Of a stretch of DNA of 61,106 nt, positions 30,037 through 50,455 are shown piece after piece. The DNA is taken from IMG/VR virus record IMGVR_UViG_3300033553_000790, one strand, 5' to 3'. A model generated the notes under the pieces. That model was given only the letters and a program-made list of their open reading frames with translations, searched no databases and was not told the origin of the DNA. The DNA is from an uncultured virus (IMG/VR IMGVR_UViG_3300033553_000790). Taxonomy: Duplodnaviria; Heunggongvirae; Uroviricota; Caudoviricetes. The position numbers and the translations under genes are program-made. Position 1 is the first letter of the stretch, and each line of letters starts with the position of its first letter.

Positions 30037-30163
30037 CTTAGGATATTAAGTTGTTGTGACGATAAACTTAATGTTTCTAAAAGGACAGAATAGGTCACTC
30101 AATGCTGTCCTTCATGGCCCTATGGCCCAAAAGGTAGAGGCAATGTTTTTTACAAGATAAAAA

Positions 30164-30236
30164 CTGTGATTAGCTCAACTGGTAGAGCAACGGCCCTGTA
30201 AAGCTGTACGTGAAGGTTCAAATCCTTTGTCGCAGA
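30164..30236 (+). tRNA. Nested tRNA-like element 1 (8-nt loop CCTGTAAA, Tyr-GTA-like)
   Basis: CTGTGAT/GTCGCAG acceptor, GCTC/GAGC D stem, ACGGC/GCTGT stem, GAAGG-TTCAAAT-CCTTT T arm. Confidence 0.65.
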
Positions 30237-30246
30237 TATTGTAAAA

Positions 30247-30319
30247 ATATGGTTAGTTTAAAATAAAAGCGGTCGCCATTATGAGGCGGCAGATGAGAGT
30301 GAAAATCTCCCACCATATT
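30247..30319 (+). tRNA. Nested tRNA-like element 2 (TAT anticodon, atypical D and T loops)
   Basis: ATATGGT/ACCATAT acceptor, GTCGCC-ATTATGA-GGCGGC arm, GAGAG-TGAAAAT-CTCCC T-like arm. Confidence 0.55.
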
Positions 30320-30392
30320 AAATAAACAACATAGGTATTGGTTCGAATCCAATTAGGGCTACTATTGTTAACAAAACAATAACAAAATAAAG

Positions 30393-30755
30393 ATAAGAAA
30401 TCCGGGTAATCGCAACAGCTCAAAAAGTTGTTGAGGAAAGTCCGAGCTTCACAGAACAGAATAGTGGGTAACACCCACCCGTGGTGACACGCGGACAAGT
30501 GCAACAGAAAGTATACCGCCTACGCTCATGAGAATGAACCGGTGAGGCTGAAACGGTGGGGTAAGAGCCCACCAGTGTTCATAGTGATATGGGCAGCTAG
30601 GTAAACTCTATTCGAAGCAAGTCCAAAAAGAAACGTCAGTAGATTGTTCGTCAAGTTTCAGGTAGGGCGCTAGAGGTTTACGGTAACGTAAATTCGAGAT
30701 GGATGATTACCCAAATAGAAATATTTGACAAAACTCGGCTTATAGGGTATCTTAT
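30393..30755 (+). ncRNA. rnpB: RNase P RNA (bacterial type A)
   Basis: GAGGAAAGTCC, AGTGCAACAGAAA, AAACGG..GGTAAGAGC, GGTAAAC..GAAGCAA and ACAAAACTCGGCTTA conserved blocks. Confidence 0.95.
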
Positions 30756-30767
30756 ATTTTATTCAAT

Positions 30768-31626: not shown

Positions 31627-31700
31627 GCCCCCATAGAGTAGCGGCCTATCTCATCTGACTTTCACTCAGAAGAACGCGGGTTCGAATCCCGCTGGGGGTA
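31627..31700 (+). tRNA. tRNA-Glu(TTC)
   Basis: Cloverleaf; loop CTTTCAC. Confidence 0.95.
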
Positions 31701-31861
31701 CTCTCACACGAGAACCTTATTTTAACCTCCCCAGGTACGAAAGTAAGCAAGGAATAAAATAAGTTTGAATATTTTTGACAAATTTATTCATGTATGATAC
31801 GATATTACATGTATCAACAAATAAAAAGTGGTAAGTAGTAAAAACGAATTTATTATCCTGA

Positions 31862-33952: not shown

Positions 33953-34023
33953 TCCCTGGTAGTGTAATGGCAGCATAACTGACTTTGGATCAGTTGGTCG
34001 AGGTTCGAACCCTCGCCGGGGAG
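33953..34023 (+). tRNA. tRNA-Gln(TTG)
   Basis: Cloverleaf; loop CTTTGGA. Confidence 0.93.
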
Positions 34024-34065
34024 CATAATATGTCGATATATACTATAACCAAAGGTTGTGAGCAT

Positions 34066-36030
34066 ATGAGAACATCCGCTAAGCTGTCTGATATGACATT
34101 AGCTAATGAGCTGCACCCAACCTTAAATGATAATAGTTTAGATATAGTGAAACTAACCGCTGGAAGTCATAAAAAACTTTGGTGGGAATGTTCAAAGAAC
34201 GAAGAGCACGAACCGTGGTTCACTTCTGTTAGGGTTAGAGTACAAGGAGCTGGTTGCCCAACTTGTGCCGGTAAGATAGTTGAGCGAACAAAATCTATAG
34301 AATACACCCACCCAGTTATAGCTGAACAGCTCGATAGTATCAACCAGGTGTCAGCTTCATCAGTTACAGCCGGTAGCAACAAAACGTATGTTTGGTCAAA
34401 CAAAGAATGCGGTCACGTTTGGGAACAAAAAGTTTATGACAGAACTAAGCAAGGGCCGGAATGCCCAGTATGTCAGTCTAACATCATAATAGAGGGAGTG
34501 AACAGCCTTTTCGATAAGCGCCCTGATTTAAAAACCTTTTGGAGTGAAAATAATATTTTAGATTTTACGAAACTAAGTTTAGGAAGCCATAAAGAAGTAG
34601 AGTGGGTTTGTTCAGAAGGCCATATTTACAAAGAGAAGGTTGTTGTTCGAGTTAAACGTAAAACATGCCCGGTTTGCGCTGGTCGCCTATTCCAGGAAGG
34701 TATTAACGATTTAGTTACCATTTACCCTTCAATAGAAGAAGTTTGGTCTGATAATAACAAGGAAACAGCTAACCAAGTTGTTTTCAACACTAAAGACGAA
34801 GCAGTATGGAATGAAAAATGTGGGCACACATATAGCGCCCCAGTTAAGATGAGAGTGAAGCATGAAGGGTGCCTGATTTGTAAAAACATTATTGTTGTCA
34901 AAGGTATCAACGATTTACTTACAACACACAGCGAGTTAGCTCAAACCTGGGGTGACAATAACGAAAAAGCTCCTTACGAAGTTTCAGCTGGTAGTGCATA
35001 CAGAGCTGAATGGGAATGCGGCAAAGGTCATGAATGGGAAGCTTTCGTTTACTCCCGTACAAGAGGTAGCGGATGTCCACAATGTAACGCCGTAAATTTC
35101 GTTTCTAAAGGTGAGCAAGAACTGTTGGATATAGTTTCTATATTAGCTGAAGGTAAAACAATAGAACAGTCGAACCGAAAAGTTCTTCAAGGCCAAGAGC
35201 TTGACATTCTCATCCCAGAAATCAACTTAGCTGTTGAGTTCAACGGTTTATACTGGCATAATGAGAATAGTGGGAAAGATAACAGATATCATCAAAATAA
35301 AATGTTGAACGCCAACAAAGCTGGTATAAAACTTATCCAAGTCTGGGAAGATGAATGGGTAGAGAAGAAAGCAATCGTAATAAGAATGTTAGCTTCAAAA
35401 ATGAACGCCAGCGTAGAAGTATTAACTGAAGCGTTAAAAAGCATAGGGACTGATGAAGAAGACATAGTGAACATGATTTCAAAACATGGAGCCAGAGAAT
35501 GCGTAACAGAAGAAATTACGTATGAAGAAGCAACCGCTTTCCTGAATGACAACCACATACAAGGTCCCGCTAAAGGAACCCTCTACACCGCGCTGAAAGA
35601 CAAACAAGGTACAGTAAGGGCCGTAATGGTTTCCCTCAAAAAAGGTGAAACCTGGGAAATAGTCAGATATGCAACATTCGGACATATACCTGGTGGTTTC
35701 ACTAAACTAATATCAAACGTTGAGAAAAAACATGGTGTTAAAAAATGGGTTACTTTCTCTGACGGGATAATATCAGAAGGGAGCCTATACAAAAACAACG
35801 GTTTCGTAAAAGATAAAACTATAGACCCGGACTACAAGTACATTGTAAACGGCGAAAGGGTGCATAAGTTTAATTACAGGTTGAAGAGATTTCGTAATGA
35901 CCCGACCCTACAATATGTTGAAGGGCACACGGAACGTCAACTGGCTGAGCTTAATGGTATCCCCCGGATATGGGATGCCGGTAAAATAAGATGGTTAAAG
36001 ATAACAGCTAAAGGAGGGCCTGATGAATAA
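34066..36030 (+). CDS. Zinc-ribbon repeat protein with Vsr/Hef-like endonuclease domain (putative homing endonuclease)
   Basis: Repeated GSxKxxWxC..H.W..R...CPxC units; ELDILIP..LAVEFNGLYWH..IQVWEDEW; NHIQG..RIWDAGK tail; start moved past tRNA-Gln. Confidence 0.8.
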   Translation: MRTSAKLSDMTLANELHPTLNDNSLDIVKLTAGSHKKLWWECSKNEEHEPWFTSVRVRVQGAGCPTCAGKIVERTKSIEYTHPVIAEQLDSINQVSASSVTAGSNKTYVWSNKECGHVWEQKVYDRTKQGPECPVCQSNIIIEGVNSLFDKRPDLKTFWSENNILDFTKLSLGSHKEVEWVCSEGHIYKEKVVVRVKRKTCPVCAGRLFQEGINDLVTIYPSIEEVWSDNNKETANQVVFNTKDEAVWNEKCGHTYSAPVKMRVKHEGCLICKNIIVVKGINDLLTTHSELAQTWGDNNEKAPYEVSAGSAYRAEWECGKGHEWEAFVYSRTRGSGCPQCNAVNFVSKGEQELLDIVSILAEGKTIEQSNRKVLQGQELDILIPEINLAVEFNGLYWHNENSGKDNRYHQNKMLNANKAGIKLIQVWEDEWVEKKAIVIRMLASKMNASVEVLTEALKSIGTDEEDIVNMISKHGARECVTEEITYEEATAFLNDNHIQGPAKGTLYTALKDKQGTVRAVMVSLKKGETWEIVRYATFGHIPGGFTKLISNVEKKHGVKKWVTFSDGIISEGSLYKNNGFVKDKTIDPDYKYIVNGERVHKFNYRLKRFRNDPTLQYVEGHTERQLAELNGIPRIWDAGKIRWLKITAKGGPDE

Positions 36031-37711
36031 TAAAGAAACGATAAATGTCACGCACTCCTACCTAGTTCAGGAATGGGTGGATGAAAAGAACATCCCGTTA
36101 TTACCTTCAGATGTTACTGCAGGTTCACATAAAAAAGTTTGGTGGAGATGCTCCGAGGGGCATGAGTGGAAAGCCCAGGTCAGTTCCCGCTGCTTATATA
36201 GTTCGGGTTGCCCTAGGTGCTCTGAGATAAAAAACTCGGTACGCACAGTTAGGAAACCCTTAGCCACCCTTTATCCTGAAATTTTTAATGAACTTAAGGA
36301 CAAGGAAATCACTGTTGTTGGTGCGGGATCACATAAAGAATTAGCATGGGTATGCGCTGAAGGCCACGAAGAAAAAGAGAAAGTTTTTGCACGGGTTAAA
36401 AGAGGCGGCTGCTCAGAGTGTAGAGGTAATGGCACATCCAAGTATAATAAAGGAGCGAAGCCCCTGCCTAAAACCATCGCGGACCAGTGGCACCCAACAA
36501 AGAATTTACCATTAACTTTAGATAAAGTTTCTTACGGTTCAACTAAAAGAGTTTGGTGGCTATGTGACAAAGGGCATGAATGGGAAGGCCGAATTAACGC
36601 AAGGAAATCTGACACTTGTTTTGAGTGCTATAAAGCAAAAACTCTAGTATTCGAAAATAGTTTCGCGAGCAGAAAAGAACAGCTTGTAGAATGGGGCGAC
36701 AATAAGCTACCAGAAGAAGTGAGTTTAGGCTCCAAGAAAAGAATAATGTGGAAATGTTCAAATAACCCTGAGCACACATGGTCAACTTTTGCTTATCAGC
36801 GTGGTAAAATAAATCCAAGCGGATGTCCGGAATGTTCGAACAACATTTTTACTTCAAAAGCAGAAGATGAGATAGCGAACCATATTCTAAGTTTAGGTGA
36901 AAACATAGAAATAATCCGTAATGATAGAAAAATTCTTGACGGAGAGTATGAGCTTGACATCTATTTACCAGAATATAAATTAGCTATTGAATATAATGGT
37001 TTGTATTGGCATAATGAAAGTCATCGGAAAGATAAAAACTATCACTATAACAAGTATAAAGCTTGCGCCGATAAAGGCATCCAACTTATCCAAATCTGGG
37101 AAGATGACTGGACAGGCAAATCTTCTATTGTAATGAAAATGATTTCGCATAAATTATCGCTATCTAAAGGCAATAAGACAATGGCTAGAAAAACAAGCAT
37201 TTCTGAAATAAGTTACAATGAAGCTTCTGCTTTCTTAGATAACAACCATATTCAGGGTGCCTCTAAGGGAAGCAAATATTGTGCTCTCGTTAATACTGAA
37301 GGTAAAAAAGTCGCAGTTTTAGTTGCCGTAAAGCGAACATCCGAAGAATGGGAGATTGCTCGTTATGCTACTGAAATAATTGTTGCTGGTGGGTTCACAA
37401 AGATGTTAAAGTATTTAGAAAGAACCAACCCGGAGATAAAAAGATGGGTTACCTTCTCAGATAACTGTATAAGCAACGGAGCCCTTTATGTGAACAATGG
37501 GTTTACTGTAGACAGACGCCTCAGATGTGACTACAGTTATGTTATCAATCAGAAGCGCATACATAAATTCAATTATAGGTTAAAGATGTTCAAAGACAAT
37601 CCTGACCTACTATTTGATGACAACTACACGGAAACCCAACTGGCTGAGCTTAACGGTATCCCCCGGATATGGGATGCCGGTAAAATAAGATGGTTAAAGA
37701 TAATACAATAA
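36023..37711 (+). CDS. Paralogous zinc-ribbon repeat Hef-like endonuclease
   Basis: Same architecture with fewer repeats; ELDIYLP..AIEYNGLYWH..IQIWEDDW. Confidence 0.8.
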   Translation: MNNKETINVTHSYLVQEWVDEKNIPLLPSDVTAGSHKKVWWRCSEGHEWKAQVSSRCLYSSGCPRCSEIKNSVRTVRKPLATLYPEIFNELKDKEITVVGAGSHKELAWVCAEGHEEKEKVFARVKRGGCSECRGNGTSKYNKGAKPLPKTIADQWHPTKNLPLTLDKVSYGSTKRVWWLCDKGHEWEGRINARKSDTCFECYKAKTLVFENSFASRKEQLVEWGDNKLPEEVSLGSKKRIMWKCSNNPEHTWSTFAYQRGKINPSGCPECSNNIFTSKAEDEIANHILSLGENIEIIRNDRKILDGEYELDIYLPEYKLAIEYNGLYWHNESHRKDKNYHYNKYKACADKGIQLIQIWEDDWTGKSSIVMKMISHKLSLSKGNKTMARKTSISEISYNEASAFLDNNHIQGASKGSKYCALVNTEGKKVAVLVAVKRTSEEWEIARYATEIIVAGGFTKMLKYLERTNPEIKRWVTFSDNCISNGALYVNNGFTVDRRLRCDYSYVINQKRIHKFNYRLKMFKDNPDLLFDDNYTETQLAELNGIPRIWDAGKIRWLKIIQ

Positions 37712-37958: not shown

Positions 37959-38027
37959 CTTTAGTTCAAGGGTTAGTCACCCTTGGGCTAGACACTACCT
38001 TCAGGTAAGACTAACCTGCTGGCGGTG

Positions 38028-38098
38028 AGTTCAATAGCTCAATGGATAAGAGCACCACCGCCCTGGTGGGGATACCAGTTCGATTCTGGTTTGGACAC
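38028..38098 (+). ncRNA. tRNA-like RNA with 5-nt anticodon loop
   Basis: GCTC/GAGC D stem, CCACC-GCCCT-GGTGG, ACCAG-TTCGATT-CTGGT. Confidence 0.7.
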
Positions 38099-38099
38099 A

Positions 38100-38170
38100 G
38101 ATTAGTATAGCTTAACGGCAAAGCACCAGCCGACGCTGGTTAGTTTAGGTTCGAATCCTAATGCTTATCG
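38100..38170 (+). ncRNA. tRNA-like RNA with 4-nt anticodon loop
   Basis: GCTT/AAGC D stem, CCAGC-CGAC-GCTGG, TTAGG-TTCGAAT-CCTAA. Confidence 0.7.
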
Positions 38171-41340: not shown

Positions 41341-41805
41341 TTGGCTACCAAATATTGTAATACATGCGAAAATAATAAAGATGTTAGTGAGTTCGGGAAA
41401 AACTCTTCCAAGAAAGATGGTCTACAGTCAAACTGTACATCATGTAGATCCGGTATGACTAAAGACTGGTATAAGAAGAACACTAGAAAACAAGTTGAGC
41501 GTGTAGCTAAAACAAAACAAGACATAGCTGAGATGTTGTATGCTTATAAATCAGAAAACCCTTACTGCCAGGGGCCTTGCGGGAACCAATATCCCCCTGA
41601 GGTTCTCCAGTTCGATCATATAGACCCTTCCACTAAGAAATTCAATCTTGGTGATGCCGCTAGAACTCAAGGTAGGTTAAAAGTTATAGAAGAAATGGAA
41701 AAATGTGTTCTTCTGTGCGCTAACTGCCACGCTTTACGTACCGCTAAACAATTCAACTGGTACGTTAATGACAAGAACCGCATCGTAGCGGAAATAGATA
41801 GCTAA
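41341..41805 (+). CDS. HNH endonuclease with N-terminal zinc finger
   Basis: CNTC..CTSC, LQFDHIDP, LCANCH. Confidence 0.85.
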   Translation: MATKYCNTCENNKDVSEFGKNSSKKDGLQSNCTSCRSGMTKDWYKKNTRKQVERVAKTKQDIAEMLYAYKSENPYCQGPCGNQYPPEVLQFDHIDPSTKKFNLGDAARTQGRLKVIEEMEKCVLLCANCHALRTAKQFNWYVNDKNRIVAEIDS

Positions 41806-44629: not shown

Positions 44630-44711
44630 GCCCCTGTGGTGGAATTGGCAGACACGCTTGACTTAAAATCAAGTGTCTTCGGACGTGTGGGTTCAAGTCC
44701 CACCGGGGGTA
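44630..44711 (+). tRNA. tRNA-Leu(TAA)
   Basis: Type II cloverleaf; loop CTTAAAA. Confidence 0.95.
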
Positions 44712-44793
44712 CTATATCAAATCTTCTTTAGGATTTGACATGTATGATAAACCATGGTAACGTACATTATATAACTTAATAAAGAATGTCGTT

Positions 44794-45926: not shown

Positions 45927-46007
45927 CTACCTAAAAACTGGTTTGTTGTAAGGTTTGACAAAACTAGTTTTTAGGTTTATAGTAATAAAATAAGTTAATA
46001 ACAGTAG

Positions 46008-46081
46008 GGGCCTTTAGCTCAGTTGGTTAGAGCAGTTCACTCATAATGAACCGGTCGTGGGTTCGAGTCCCACAAGGCCCA
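46008..46081 (+). tRNA. tRNA-Ile2/Met(CAT), probably lysidine-type Ile2
   Basis: GGGCCTT acceptor like Ile tRNAs; loop CTCATAA. Confidence 0.85.
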
Positions 46082-46126
46082 CTGTGAGCATTTTTTATAG
46101 CTCACTACAAATAAAAAAATAAGCAT

Positions 46127-46499
46127 GGGGATGTCACTGGTTTCGACTGGTGTTAGTACATAGCCCAATGCACGTCGAGTGAATCTTGTTAAGCTCGTAA
46201 AAATAAATAAGAAAAAACAAATGCAAACCGTAATACGTTCGCACTAGCCGCTTAGCGGCTGTCAGGATTACTTAGGTATTTTTCTTTTCCGCTCCATATA
46301 GTCCTGGCTCATCTTAAAAGGAGAAGGCTTGAATTGTTGATTAGTGTTTTAAACAATTTGAGTATTATAAACACAAAGCGAATTCTATGAATGTTGATGT
46401 AAAAGAGTTCATTTCGCTTTAAGGAGAATATGTCATCTAAACGTGTACACATTGGATTATTAAAATATCAGGACGGGGGTTCGAATCCCCCCATCTCCA
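46127..46499 (+). ncRNA. ssrA: tmRNA; tag peptide (A)ANRNTFALAA at 46223-46255
   Basis: GGGGATG..GGTTTCGAC 5' end, G3:U70, tag ending ALAA-stop, GGACGGGGGTTCGAATCCCCCCATCTCCA 3' end. Confidence 0.95.
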
Positions 46500-46518
46500 C
46501 TAATAGTAACTGTATAAG

Positions 46519-46893
46519 TTACCTATCCCCGAAAGGTATTTTCTTTGGGGTTCCCTCATCAAGGTTCATGGCTGTTACTTGACCTTCGGAATAGAATTCA
46601 ACTCTTGAAAGAATACTCTCATCATAATAATATGTTGCGTAAGGGTTAACCGTATCATCAAGATAATGGATTTCTTTTAATAGATTACCACTATAAAAAT
46701 ATTGTTTAGAAGCTAAAGAGCCATTATAGCGGTATTTACCATATTCGGTAATGAGATATTTCTCAGGTACCCTGAATAACGTTAAAATGATTTTGTTATA
46801 AAATTTAGAAACCCTATTCTGAGAGTAATCAGATGATAAAGGTACAGCTAATAACCCTATGGTAAACGTCGCTACGATAATATCAAAAAACAT
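46519..46893 (-). CDS. Hypothetical protein with N-terminal hydrophobic segment
   Basis: 124 aa ORF. Confidence 0.45.
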   Translation of the reverse strand: MFFDIIVATFTIGLLAVPLSSDYSQNRVSKFYNKIILTLFRVPEKYLITEYGKYRYNGSLASKQYFYSGNLLKEIHYLDDTVNPYATYYYDESILSRVEFYSEGQVTAMNLDEGTPKKIPFGDR

Positions 46894-47000
46894 TCTTTAT
46901 TCACTACCTTGGGAATAGTTCTATAATTATATATCTGTATATTATTGGGTTGCGTTTCACGTTAGAGTATGGTAGTATTAAAAAACAAGTTTAACAACTT

Positions 47001-47128
47001 GGGAGGTTGGCAGAGTCAGGTTTATTGCGAGCTCATTTGTCTTGTTGTGACAAATACTTCTCATTGATTTGAGAGTTAAAAGAGCTAGGGGCCCTATCCC
47101 CTCGAAGGTTCAAATCCTTTACCTCCCA
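47001..47128 (+). ncRNA. Type II tRNA scaffold with anticodon loop replaced by two hairpins
   Basis: GGGAGGT/ACCTCCC-A, AGCTC/GAGCT stem enclosing 47 nt, AGGGG/CCCCT variable arm, GAAGG-TTCAAAT-CCTTT. Confidence 0.75.
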
Positions 47129-47162
47129 CTATTTTTAACGACTATTTTAAGGAGCTATAAAA

Positions 47163-47441
47163 ATGAGTACAAAAAGGAACGAGTATGAAATGATTACCCT
47201 TGCCAACGGTAAAAGAGAATCCATTCTTGATCTTCTGGAAAAACGCGGTAAGGATGCTACTATAAGTATCATCAATCCTGTTAATGGTAAGAAAATGAAT
47301 ATACAACTAGGGGCTATTTCACTGGTCGTCTTCGAGTTGAAATGCGGCTGCCAGGGTAAAGGCATTGCAGTCACCTCAACAGATACACTGTTTTGTAACA
47401 AGCACCAATCATTACAGCGCGTATCAAGAATAATTTCATAA
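47163..47441 (+). CDS. Small hypothetical protein (CGC...FCxxH)
   Basis: 92 aa ORF with AAGGAG RBS. Confidence 0.55.
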   Translation: MSTKRNEYEMITLANGKRESILDLLEKRGKDATISIINPVNGKKMNIQLGAISLVVFELKCGCQGKGIAVTSTDTLFCNKHQSLQRVSRIIS

Positions 47442-47503
47442 AAACAATAAGTGAATGAATGCAACTAATTCACAACTAGACAAGAAAAGGAGCGTGAGGA
47501 CTT

Positions 47504-48088
47504 ATGCATTCTACATTAGTACTTAACGCTACTTTTGAACCTATAAACATTTCTAGTTCAAGAAAAGCTGTGAAGAACATCATCCTTGGTAAGGCTGTTT
47601 CTGTTCTTGATAGCGAAGATAAGATCATGCATTCAAGTGACTACGAAATTGCTGTACCTTATGTTGTTCTGCTCACCAAGCAGGTTAGCTACTACCCTTA
47701 CAGCCGAAAGAGGAAAAACCGACCTTTCTCATTGAAGGGTGTCCTTGTTAGGGACGGTAAAACTTGTGTTTACTGTAGTAAAAGCGCTAACACAGTTGAC
47801 CACGTGTGGCCTAAAGATAAGGGCGGTAAAAGCACTTGGGAGAACTGCGTTGCCGCTTGCTCTAAATGTAACTCTGATAAGAGTAACAAAACTCTTGATG
47901 AGCTAGGTTGGGTATTGCCTTTCACACCAGGGGAGCCTAACCCTTGGTCTATGGGCTCACCGTATGTTGCGCTAGCGCGCAAAGCCCCTAACAGGAAGCT
48001 TCTGGATATATGGTTACCCTACATTGAGCGGTTTGACTCTAAAGTTATAACCGATGAGAGAATCGCTCGTATGCTCAAGATATCATAA
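47504..48088 (+). CDS. HNH endonuclease (McrA-like)
   Basis: LVLNATFEP, RDGKTCVYC, TVDHVWP..GG..WENCVAACSKCN. Confidence 0.9.
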   Translation: MHSTLVLNATFEPINISSSRKAVKNIILGKAVSVLDSEDKIMHSSDYEIAVPYVVLLTKQVSYYPYSRKRKNRPFSLKGVLVRDGKTCVYCSKSANTVDHVWPKDKGGKSTWENCVAACSKCNSDKSNKTLDELGWVLPFTPGEPNPWSMGSPYVALARKAPNRKLLDIWLPYIERFDSKVITDERIARMLKIS

Positions 48089-48253
48089 AGATGATACGCG
48101 CAGGGGAGAGAATAGTACATCTCCTCTGCGCGTATCTCTATTTATAAATAAGTAGGAATGACAGAGGTACATAAGAAATATGTTATAATTAGAAGAGATT
48201 TTGCCTATAGATATAGTACCTAAAAATGTTAAATTATTAGAATGAGTTTGTAA

Positions 48254-50455
48254 ATGGCCAATAACAATCAATCAGTTGTTCCGCACGAGTACTATGACCT
48301 GCCTTCAGAGCAAGCTGTCATAGCTAGTTTGCTGGCGGCAGATGAATCCACCGTGTATATAGAGGTCGGTAAAGTAGTGGAGATACTTCTAGCTGAAGAT
48401 TTCTATGGTGAAGCCAATAAGATAATTTACGATGAAATTGTGCGCCGGTTTGAATCCGGACAATCCATCAGCCCGATGTCGATTCTAGAATCGATACGAG
48501 CTAACGGCGATATGAACAAAATAGGCGGCGTGGAATATGTTAAGTCTATTCTAGACCCCAGCAACCTGTATTACTACCATGATGACGTAGAAACTTACGC
48601 TAGAATTGTTCTAGATGAATCTAAAAGAAGAAAACTATGGCGCATGGCCTTAGATATCCAAGCATCATCCCACCCTGACAGCGGTATTGGCGTTGGCGAG
48701 TCTATAACTCTAGCCGAAAGTACCATAAGAAGATTAGCTGATGACACAATCAAGACTGATGCTGTAAAGGTTAGTGAAATAACTGACGCAATGATGGAGC
48801 AGATAGAGCTTAGGAAAGACATCCCTGTTGGTGCCACAATTGGAATCCCCTCAGGCTTCATTGACTTAGACAGGAAAACTTCTGGGTGGAAACCAGGCCA
48901 GTTCATAATTGTTGCTGCTCGCCCCGGTATGGGTAAAGCTTTAGCTCTAGACACAGAAATTCCAACCCCTACCGGGTGGAGAACAATGGCGAAAATGAGG
49001 GAAGGCGATACGGTTTATTCCCCTAGTGGCTACCCTATTAAAGTTACACACGTAACGGAAGTTATGGAAGACCACGAATGTTTCGAAGTTGCGTTTTCTG
49101 ATGGCACAACTATAAAAGCAGATGCTGAGCACGAATGGGGAATTGGTAACGGTGATTTAGTTGAGGTATCTAACACTAAAGAGCTTTACTTGTCGTTACA
49201 AACAAACCCAAGAGCTCAACTTAGCATACCGCCTCACACGGCAACAACAGTTGATATAGCAGCCCTAACCCCCGAACAGCCCATAACGGTTGAAGTGGAC
49301 GTATATACAAGCATAAGCTGTGGAGATATACCCGAAATAAAGAACCCGTGGATTTTACCCTTAGGGTTAAGAAATTCTATGCTAAAAGACGCTAAAGATG
49401 CGCTTAAAGAATACGAAAATAACGCAACTTTCAACCCACAGGATGCCATGAAAGTTGAAGGGTGGATAAAAAACCTAGAAACATCAATGGGTATGCACAC
49501 TAAACGTTACATAACAGAAATTAGAAAAATAGATAGCGTACCTGTTAAATGTATACAAGTAGAATCAGAAGACCACTTCTACTTAGCAGGCAACTTCATA
49601 CCTACTCACAACTCAACCATTGCTTTGGACTTTGCTAGAGCAGCATCAATGCTAGCCCATAAAACAGTTGTTCTTTTCTCACTAGAGATGGGAAAAGAAG
49701 AGATACTTGAGAAAATAATTTCAGCAGAATCGCGCGTAGCGGCAGAGAACATAAAAACCGGTAACCTACTACCTGAACAGTGGAGAGACATACTTGAAGC
49801 TAAAGAGAAACTTGATAAAAGCAACCTTATCATTGACGATTCAGCAAACAGTGTTACATTAAGCCATATTAGAACCGTTCTTCAGAGGCAAAAATCAAGC
49901 CCTGAAGGTTTAGATATGGCTATCATAGACTACATCCAGCTGATGACAGGTGCCACTAGCCGCCAAGGGGAGAACAGACAGCAAGAAGTTTCAGAGCTCT
50001 CACGTGGCATTAAACTCTTAGCAAAAGAGCTACAAATACCAATATTTGGCCTAGCACAGCTAAACCGTGGACCTATGCAAAGAACAGATAAGCGACCGAT
50101 GGTCTCCGACCTTAGAGAATCTGGTTCTTTGGAGCAGGATGCTGACATGGTTCTTCTTATACACCGCCCTGAAGTTTACGATCCGAATGAGAGTGTAGGG
50201 ATAGCACTACTTGATGTAGCTAAACACAGAAATGGCTCGACAGGTGTTATACAGTTGAACAGCTTACTACATATCTCTAAATTCTCAAACGCCACAGGTA
50301 CTGTTGAGCAAAGAAACTTTGTTGAAGAAAAAGAGAAGACAATACAGGATAAAGCTGAGAAAGAAGAGAACTCTGACACTGAGGAAGAATATAGCGAAGA
50401 AGACATACCGCCTAAATATACTGCTCCACCTGAAAGCGGAGAACAAGCCTGGTAA
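48254..50455 (+). CDS. dnaB: Replicative DNA helicase DnaB, intein-containing
   Basis: EQAVI, AARPGMGK|S, FSLEM, IDYIQL, AQLNR, SDLRESGSLEQDAD, KHRNG. Confidence 0.95.
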   Translation: MANNNQSVVPHEYYDLPSEQAVIASLLAADESTVYIEVGKVVEILLAEDFYGEANKIIYDEIVRRFESGQSISPMSILESIRANGDMNKIGGVEYVKSILDPSNLYYYHDDVETYARIVLDESKRRKLWRMALDIQASSHPDSGIGVGESITLAESTIRRLADDTIKTDAVKVSEITDAMMEQIELRKDIPVGATIGIPSGFIDLDRKTSGWKPGQFIIVAARPGMGKALALDTEIPTPTGWRTMAKMREGDTVYSPSGYPIKVTHVTEVMEDHECFEVAFSDGTTIKADAEHEWGIGNGDLVEVSNTKELYLSLQTNPRAQLSIPPHTATTVDIAALTPEQPITVEVDVYTSISCGDIPEIKNPWILPLGLRNSMLKDAKDALKEYENNATFNPQDAMKVEGWIKNLETSMGMHTKRYITEIRKIDSVPVKCIQVESEDHFYLAGNFIPTHNSTIALDFARAASMLAHKTVVLFSLEMGKEEILEKIISAESRVAAENIKTGNLLPEQWRDILEAKEKLDKSNLIIDDSANSVTLSHIRTVLQRQKSSPEGLDMAIIDYIQLMTGATSRQGENRQQEVSELSRGIKLLAKELQIPIFGLAQLNRGPMQRTDKRPMVSDLRESGSLEQDADMVLLIHRPEVYDPNESVGIALLDVAKHRNGSTGVIQLNSLLHISKFSNATGTVEQRNFVEEKEKTIQDKAEKEENSDTEEEYSEEDIPPKYTAPPESGEQAW
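48938..49612 (+). mobile_element. 225-aa class 3 mini-intein in the DnaB P-loop
   Basis: Starts ALALDT after GK, block B HEW, block F VKCIQV, ends PTHN before Ser; no recognisable endonuclease. Confidence 0.9.

Follow-up and report, generated by a model that had tools for sequence, protein, structure and literature searches.

The tRNA-like gene at positions 47001-47128 of the 61,106-nt stretch of viral DNA analysed here (the whole of which is referred to as the window) is best read as a tRNA(UAA) gene that carries a 40-nt mini-intron composed of two hairpins, which would be excised by cutting and re-joining of the RNA, a reading to which we attach a probability of about 0.45. Central to this reading is that the two hairpins interrupt the anticodon loop and do not replace it, as the letters left over at their junction reconstitute a canonical loop and the products of a hypothetical excision are called as tRNAs. 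The first-pass annotation of this DNA had placed the hairpins in the stead of the anticodon loop, which is not so: the loop CUUAAAA is still there in split form.

Anatomy of the gene and its split anticodon loop

The Rfam tRNA model RF00005, for which the gathering score is 29 bits, spans exactly positions 47001-47128 with a score of 32.5 bits (E 1.1e-4), and its alignment places 47 nt at the site of the normal 7-nt anticodon loop; as encoded, the gene is without a 7-nt anticodon loop. The features of the gene and of its immediate surroundings are collected in Table 1. Around the insert the signs of pseudogene-type decay are absent from the tRNA body, in that every stem is paired and none of the T loop, G18G19, U8 and A14 has been lost, which bears out the intact body with a long variable arm that had been described at first pass. 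The discriminator is the A at 47128 and CCA is not encoded. Over a stretch of 17 nt the T arm has exactly the same sequence as that of the tRNA-like gene at 30164-30236.

Table 1. Positions of the tRNA-like gene, its parts and selected neighbouring features in the window.
Feature	Position	Strand	Basis or remark
Whole tRNA-like gene, 128 nt	47001..47128	+	Rfam RF00005, ARAGORN intron mode
Acceptor stem, 5' strand	47001..47007	+	7/7 pairs with 47121-47127
D arm, serine type (GGCAGAGT..GGTTTATTGCG)	47010..47028	+	D-arm motif marks tRNA-Ser in IMG/VR
Anticodon stem, 5' strand AGCTC	47030..47034	+	pairs with GAGCT; Rfam and serine-type model R1 alignments
Insert, 47 nt, between anticodon-stem strands	47035..47081	+	
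Hairpin 1, ATTTGTC-TTGTTGT-GACAAAT: 7-bp stem, 7-nt loop, 21 nt	47035..47055	+	minimum-energy fold
Unpaired AC between hairpins; C 47057 read as position 32	47056..47057	+	fold
Hairpin 2, TTCTCA-TTGATT-TGAGAG: 6-bp stem, 6-nt loop, 18 nt	47058..47075	+	minimum-energy fold
Unpaired TTAAAA, read as 33-38 (U33, anticodon UAA, A37, A38)	47076..47081	+	fold
Anticodon stem, 3' strand GAGCT	47082..47086	+	Rfam alignment, fold
Long variable arm, 5-bp stem, 6-nt loop	47087..47103	+	Rfam alignment, fold
T arm GAAGG-TTCAAAT-CCTTT	47104..47120	+	Rfam alignment, fold
tmRNA	46127-46500		
Promoter-like site TTCACT, 16-nt spacer, TATAAT, 10/12	46900..46927	+	73 nt upstream of the tRNA-like gene
92-aa open frame with AAGGAG ribosome-binding site	47163..47441	+	35 nt past the tRNA-like gene
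HNH endonuclease gene	47504..48088	+	about 380 nt downstream; PF01844 E 5.5e-12, phrog_16726 E 5e-25
Class A RNase P RNA	30394-30758	+	289 bits, model positions 1-367 of 367

The gene is absent from the default ARAGORN list for the whole window, which comprises 56 genes (55 tRNAs and the tmRNA), and is called in intron mode only. The intron-mode call itself, a tRNA-Lys(UUU) with a 31-nt intron, an anticodon stem AGCTC/GAGTT and a 26-nt variable region, was rejected, since both Rfam and R1, a covariance model built for this serine-type family, chose AGCTC/GAGCT, R1 taking AGCUC/GAGCU for the anticodon stem and placing 44 inserted nucleotides in the loop.

In the minimum-energy fold hairpins 1 and 2 branch from a three-way junction at the end of the stem AGCUC/GAGCU, and hairpin 1 stacks immediately on the anticodon stem with zero unpaired bases between the two. 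This fold is the arrangement drawn in the first-pass annotation, a stem enclosing 47 nt with two hairpins, and the stem of hairpin 1 is as given there, but hairpin 2 has six pairs rather than four. Pair probabilities amount to 0.77-0.86 in the anticodon stem, 0.81-1.0 in hairpin 1 and 0.37-1.0 in hairpin 2. Compared with shuffled sequences, the whole 128-nt RNA gives a z of -2.81 (3 of 200 shuffles were equally good) and the 57-nt anticodon arm a z of -2.49 (5 of 200); the stability of both is only moderately above chance. Within the 61-kb window there is no second copy of either hairpin or of the insert (for hairpin 1 at up to 3 mismatches), so that the multiple copies by which a miniature hairpin insertion element is recognised are missing in these 61 kb.

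It had also been proposed that the hairpin loops resemble anticodon loops, a likeness that turns out to be weak, as only loop 1 is 7 nt long, with U as its second base, and loop 2 comprises 6 nt. Hairpin 1 and the commonest IMG/VR tRNA-Ser(UGA) arm have TTTGTCTTG and ACAAAT in common. That hairpin 1 was copied from a tRNA-Ser(UGA) arm was considered and rejected, since its best local score, 9, was equalled in 177 of 2000 random hairpins built alike.

What, then, remains of the anticodon loop? With the anticodon stem closed, the sole unpaired letters of the insert are AC and UUAAAA, and the last seven letters at the junction, CUUAAAA, constitute the canonical loop C32-U33-U34-A35-A36-A37-A38 with the anticodon UAA, a loop identical to that of the tRNA-Leu(UAA) of the array at 44630-44712. 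The frequency of such a pattern was gauged by shuffling the 47-nt insert 5000 times and inspecting the junction letters of the folds: 207 shuffles were as stable, 325 had 7-8 junction letters, 47 had a canonical Y-U-NNN-R-N loop, 5 had a Leu, Ser or Tyr anticodon, as found in long-arm tRNAs, and 3 had a Leu anticodon, figures that are indicative rather than a true probability because the test was devised after the pattern was seen.

Hairpin 1 (21-22 nt) occupies the junction of stem and loop, at positions 31/32, and hairpin 2 (18 nt) lies between position 32 and the anticodon, where its own junction may be 32/33, 33/34 or 34/35, an ambiguity due to the repeated U. Hypothetical excision products were built by script and 10/10 were called as tRNAs by default ARAGORN, with the anticodon UAA in five, UUG in three and UUA in one, the remaining product having an 8-nt loop. 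A clean CUUAAAA requires the removal of two pieces, 22 nt at 31/32 and 18 nt from between position 32 and the anticodon; if 40 nt are excised in one piece, the outcome is AUUAAAA, with an unusual A32.

Serine-type body and leucine anticodon

The body of the gene is, going by its sequence, of the serine type. Its 5' half matches annotated tRNA-Ser of cultured phages in 16 of 25 cases among the matches listed, with no other isotype named, and its D-arm motif is found in at least 115 IMG/VR loci. Among the matches listed for that motif, ARAGORN identifies 113 of 115 as tRNA-Ser, one is a serine-type body with the anticodon CCA and one is an incomplete tRNA copy; none of these 115 same-D-arm loci carries an insert in the anticodon loop. 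The IMG/VR locus L284:241-329 (-) combines a serine-type body and a long variable arm with discriminator G and the anticodon CCA. With R1 the gene scores 30.6 bits, against 47-82 bits for the four tRNA-Ser genes of the array. The five tRNA-Leu genes of the array have a Leu-type D arm, whereas the D arm here is serine-type and the discriminator is A.

Two features depart from the serine family. The anticodon is UGA in 107 of the 115 same-D-arm loci among the matches listed, from which the UAA of the present gene differs in the middle base, and among 49 distinct same-D-arm IMG/VR tRNAs the discriminator, assigned by a crude end rule, is G in 38, T in 11 and A in none. A73 is a leucine identity mark for LeuRS, and both SerRS and LeuRS ignore the anticodon. 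By these identity rules the discriminator A and the hidden UAA are read as pointing to leucine. UUA is moreover the most used leucine codon (305 of 928) in 25 frames of the window. The resulting conflict of identity, with a leucine anticodon on a serine-type body, is hard to reconcile with faithful decoding. One of the 8 single-cut placements would give the anticodon UUA and hence an ochre suppressor, which is unlikely because TAA ends 18 of the 25 counted frames and the standard code suits the window well.

Genomic setting and relatives

The tRNA array of the window is large, with 55 ARAGORN tRNAs between 29154 and 46500 and low-scoring tRNA-like genes besides; the Rfam tRNA model has 57 matches in the window. 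The gene under study lies about 500 nt past the tmRNA and is set apart from the main array by a minus-strand open frame at 46519-46893, a position after the tmRNA that confirms its earlier description as the last RNA of the array. Other genes of the window include Dam methylase, SbcCD-like, SSB, FtsK-like, WhiB, DnaB and RecA genes, and no structural gene was found in the window with Pfam or PHROG. The element looks like a jumbo phage or a megaplasmid, and its source is likely a jumbo phage. In addition to its class A RNase P RNA there is, inside the array at 31699-31786 (+), a weak match to the bacterial small SRP RNA of 30.5 bits, for which the threshold is 40. The available text of a huge-phage paper (PMC7162821) contains the term "RNase P RNA" 0 times.

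Immediately around the gene, promoter-like sites number 5 in the region against 4.3 expected in shuffles, which is not above chance. As there is no terminator-like site between the tRNA gene and the 92-aa frame that follows it, for which no Pfam or PHROG family was found, the two are likely to be co-transcribed. There are four endonuclease genes of the HNH or homing type within or beside the array, at 33985-37711, 41341-41805 and 47504-48088 (+), and two of the four encode large proteins with treble-clef zinc-finger repeats. Further downstream, the DnaB gene at 48254-50455 (+) encodes 733 aa, with the C-terminal domain matched in two stretches and, in the alignment with relatives, an inserted segment ending in HNS that is intein-like; many DnaB relatives have an intein endonuclease domain. 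A single cold-spring study, from which the window may come, has two DNA sequencing runs in which the 47001-47128 stretch is unchanged; no RNA runs containing it are listed, and the one metatranscriptome of that study yielded nothing.

Several other tRNA-like genes of the array are aberrant. At 30116-30362 (+) an outer tRNA gene, with a possible anticodon of UAA or UUA, has its anticodon loop split by 173-180 nt, and this insert consists of two tRNA-like genes, one at 30164-30236 with a 7-bp inverted repeat around it and one at 30247-30319. The first-pass annotation had attributed the same design to this nested gene and to the one at 47001. The resemblance lies in an outer tRNA whose anticodon may be UAA and whose anticodon loop contains an insert, but does not extend to the length of 173-180 nt, the tRNA-like genes within, or the junction letters, which at 30116 are U and AAAUAAAC and give no clean 7-nt loop. 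The 30116 insert starts with TACAAG, as do several of the Lak tRNA introns in the part of Table S6 consulted (PMC6784885). Acceptor stems of 8 bp are drawn for 38027-38099, 38100-38170 and 30247-30319, anticodon loops of 6 nt are seen in 30164-30236 and 38100-38170, and 38027-38099 is without U33. The presence of these other aberrant tRNA-like genes implies that decay or non-decoding roles do occur in the array.

The homologue search that had been suggested at first pass found no relative of the gene or of its insert in cultured phages, IMG/VR or GTDB genome contigs. With blastn of positions 46000-48500 against cultured phages, the tRNA-Met part was the only match; exact searches with a 30-mer and a 25-mer gave 0 matches in IMG/VR, and a 22-mer and 21-mer had 0 matches in GTDB genome contigs. 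On present data the insert is unique. Single neighbouring proteins, searched against IMG/VR and genome contigs, led to no related locus: the nearest DnaB relative is 61% identical, and the DnaB alignment returned 80 generic DnaB loci from metagenomes and 80 generic loci from IMG/VR at an identity of at most 47%. None of the 80 metagenome loci has a tRNA array, and a single tRNA is found in 5 of the 80.

A survey of IMG/VR for oversize tRNAs of serine type gave 119 loci, 10 of them with 7/7 acceptor pairs, which were set aside as heterogeneous and unrelated to the 47001-47128 gene, ARAGORN intron calls on such sequences being unreliable. Also numerous in IMG/VR (L395-L512, for instance L485:293-395 and L407:290-389) are tRNA scaffolds of the Leu type, 97-128 nt long, with 7/7 acceptor pairs in 93 of 121 pattern matches, in which 34 distinct sequences have a common acceptor, AGTCAGG, and one T arm, together with unrelated middles of 55-85 nt. 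Of ten scaffolds tested, five match the Rfam tRNA model with an E of at most 0.01, and the L485 scaffold, used as the one query, had no match in cultured phages.

Proposed mini-intron, rival readings and known systems

If the insert is a mini-intron, the gene would be transcribed together with the downstream operon, and the 5' and 3' ends of the transcript would be trimmed by RNase P and a 3' nuclease, with CCA then being added; the element's own RNase P RNA could serve in the end trimming. A protein endonuclease would cleave at the bases of the hairpins and, following their removal, an RNA ligase would re-seal the anticodon loop, such that the product would be an additional tRNA for UUA, which is the leucine codon that the element uses most. 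The first-pass annotation had offered two readings, a scaffold or decoy and a tRNA with a small non-self-splicing intron, of which the latter fits better, because the junction letters give CUUAAAA and the discriminator A agrees with a leucine anticodon. What speaks against the mini-intron reading is a lack of known excision machinery: there is no bulge-helix-bulge on the anticodon stem (a relaxed scan gave 27 candidates, 0 of which use 47030-47034/47082-47086), positions 46500-47600 have no Rfam match to an intron family, group I included, at E up to 10, and a Pfam scan of 47 open frames found no RNA ligase or splicing endonuclease domain. The two excisions needed for a clean loop, the conflict of identity, the other aberrant genes of the array and the lack of an insert in the 115 same-D-arm loci listed also weigh against it. 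A more far-reaching form of the mini-intron reading holds that both hairpins are genuine mini-introns at the RNA level, which a yet undescribed bacterial or phage cut-and-rejoin pathway removes, maybe with the help of the RNase P RNA and an RNA ligase, and that the product, a serine-type tRNA with A73 and UAA, supplies or switches on UUA decoding in a host poor in that tRNA. This we regard as quite unlikely; if it were true and the product were charged with serine, the gene would encode a masked mistranslating tRNA.

The main rival to the mini-intron reading, and one that we consider possible though rather unlikely, is that the insert is an unspliced scar, in which a DNA-level event placed 40 hairpin-forming nucleotides in a working tRNA gene, so that RNA is made and cannot decode. 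Repair after an HNH homing-type cut, slippage or duplication in the anticodon arm, and a small hairpin insertion element have been considered as sources, and the outcome would be a recent pseudogene or a gene retained only since the insert shields the DNA site from the endonuclease. An HNH gene does lie about 380 nt downstream, with three more in the array, the 5' strand of hairpin 2 repeats the CTCATT of the outer stem and loop, and there are further defective-looking tRNA genes in the array; the insert is also unique, with 0 of the 115 same-D-arm tRNAs among the matches listed having one, and neither excision machinery nor an excision motif was found with Rfam or in the bulge-helix-bulge scan. 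A scar is harder to square with the intactness of the stems, the conserved tertiary positions and the seven split loop letters, which fits selection or a very recent event, with a target-site duplication no longer than 1-2 nt and with the lack of another copy of the insert in 61 kb, and A together with UAA looks like a coherent identity rather than decay.

The remaining alternatives take the RNA as it stands. The full 128 nt could be the product, a non-decoding tRNA-like RNA in which the hairpins are the working part, for example as anticodon-nuclease bait or as a site at which a phage or host protein binds, and which is processed and perhaps charged like a tRNA, as SerRS and LeuRS pay no heed to the anticodon. 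Its body is intact and its branched arm stable, the 7-nt loop of hairpin 1 has U second and a purine sixth, the stable RNAs of T4 with tRNA-like ends provide a precedent, and there are the many IMG/VR Leu-type scaffolds with conserved ends and unrelated middles; in addition, phage tRNAs have been proposed, in the part of the source consulted, to counter tRNA-cutting defences (PMC10264068). Junction letters that make up a canonical loop matching the discriminator would, however, be superfluous in a pure scaffold, the loop of hairpin 2 has 6 nt, and hairpin 1 is not significantly similar to a genuine anticodon arm (177/2000), so that the earlier suggestion of a decoy for anticodon nucleases or synthetases is left with no positive support and the reading as a whole appears decidedly improbable. 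Hardly credible is the further possibility that hairpin 1 lengthens the 5-bp stem to an arm of 12 bp, in which UUGUUGU would act as the anticodon loop with GUU (Asn) as its anticodon, hairpin 2 branching off sideways: coaxial stacking is possible, given that there is no unpaired base between the stem and hairpin 1, and the loop fits U33 and a purine at 37, but the arm is 7 bp too long for the decoding site in normal tRNA geometry, the body is serine-type and not Asn, and the array already has two tRNA-Asn(GUU) genes.

Why does the distinction matter? Short tRNA inserts that are unable to self-splice recur in huge phages, and in the literature searched no paper reports that they are spliced or shows how they are removed, nor is protein-dependent tRNA splicing reported in bacteria or their viruses in the literature surveyed. 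If such inserts are removed, phages have a route of tRNA maturation unknown in bacteria; if they stay, tRNA genes of phage arrays that look intact can be silent shells, which bears on the counting and the interpretation of phage tRNA sets.

Among known systems, bacterial and plastid tRNA-Leu(UAA) genes are known for a group I intron that splits their anticodon loop, classically at U34/A35. The present gene resembles these in having the same anticodon and an insert inside the loop, with U34/A35 among the allowed placements, and differs from them in that 40 nt are too small for a group I core, in the lack of an Rfam match and in its serine-type body. With the bulge-helix-bulge introns of archaea and eukaryotes the gene would have in common a short intron and removal by an endonuclease and a ligase; unlike them, it has no bulge-helix-bulge and no splicing endonuclease in the 47 frames scanned, and it stands in a bacterial RNA context, with a class A RNase P RNA and a tmRNA. 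In phage T4, Pnkp and Rnl1 reseal tRNA-Lys that has been cut 5' of the wobble base by PrrC, a phage pathway that re-joins an anticodon loop at 33/34, which is a junction allowed in the present gene; in T4, however, a single cut is mended and no sequence is removed, and a ligase gene is not seen in this window. The species 1 and 2 RNAs of T4 are tRNA-like stable RNAs, and these, as well as tRNA pseudogenes, are similar in combining tRNA-shaped ends with a non-tRNA middle within a tRNA cluster, whereas the gene at 47001-47128 has kept a complete, split canonical anticodon loop.

The closest likeness is to the short inserts in the tRNA genes of huge phages. Lak megaphage tRNAs have been described, in the sections of the paper available, as carrying introns that are "enigmatic" and highly conserved, and among which one is itself a possible tRNA gene (Devoto 2019, PMC6784885). 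The part of its Table S6 consulted has 15 "possible intron" entries of 23-141 nt in tRNAs of Lak and other huge phages, three of them in tRNAs with a UAA anticodon, and includes a Leu-type body of a JGI huge phage in which a 23-nt insert leaves, by eye, CU and UAAAA (PMC6784885). A 2026 survey, as far as its accessible text goes, adds intronic tRNA sequences in 262 alternatively coded jumbo phages (PMC13037316). As presented in those parts of the sources, these introns and the present insert (23-141 nt there, 40-47 nt here) are alike in being short, non-ribozyme insertions in the anticodon loop of an intact tRNA gene, in occurring within large phage-type tRNA sets, in having UAA-anticodon tRNAs among their hosts and in not being group I. 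They differ in build, the Lak introns having a small hairpin and a miniature tRNA with a T-loop motif, which is lacking here, where there are two plain hairpins; in the genetic code, which is alternative in Lak phages whereas the standard code reads well here; and in distribution, the Lak introns being conserved across relatives and the present insert being known from one element. The insert of the 47001-47128 gene thus belongs with the short, non-self-splicing "enigmatic" introns of huge-phage tRNA genes as so far described, and represents an already described kind rather than a new type of RNA.
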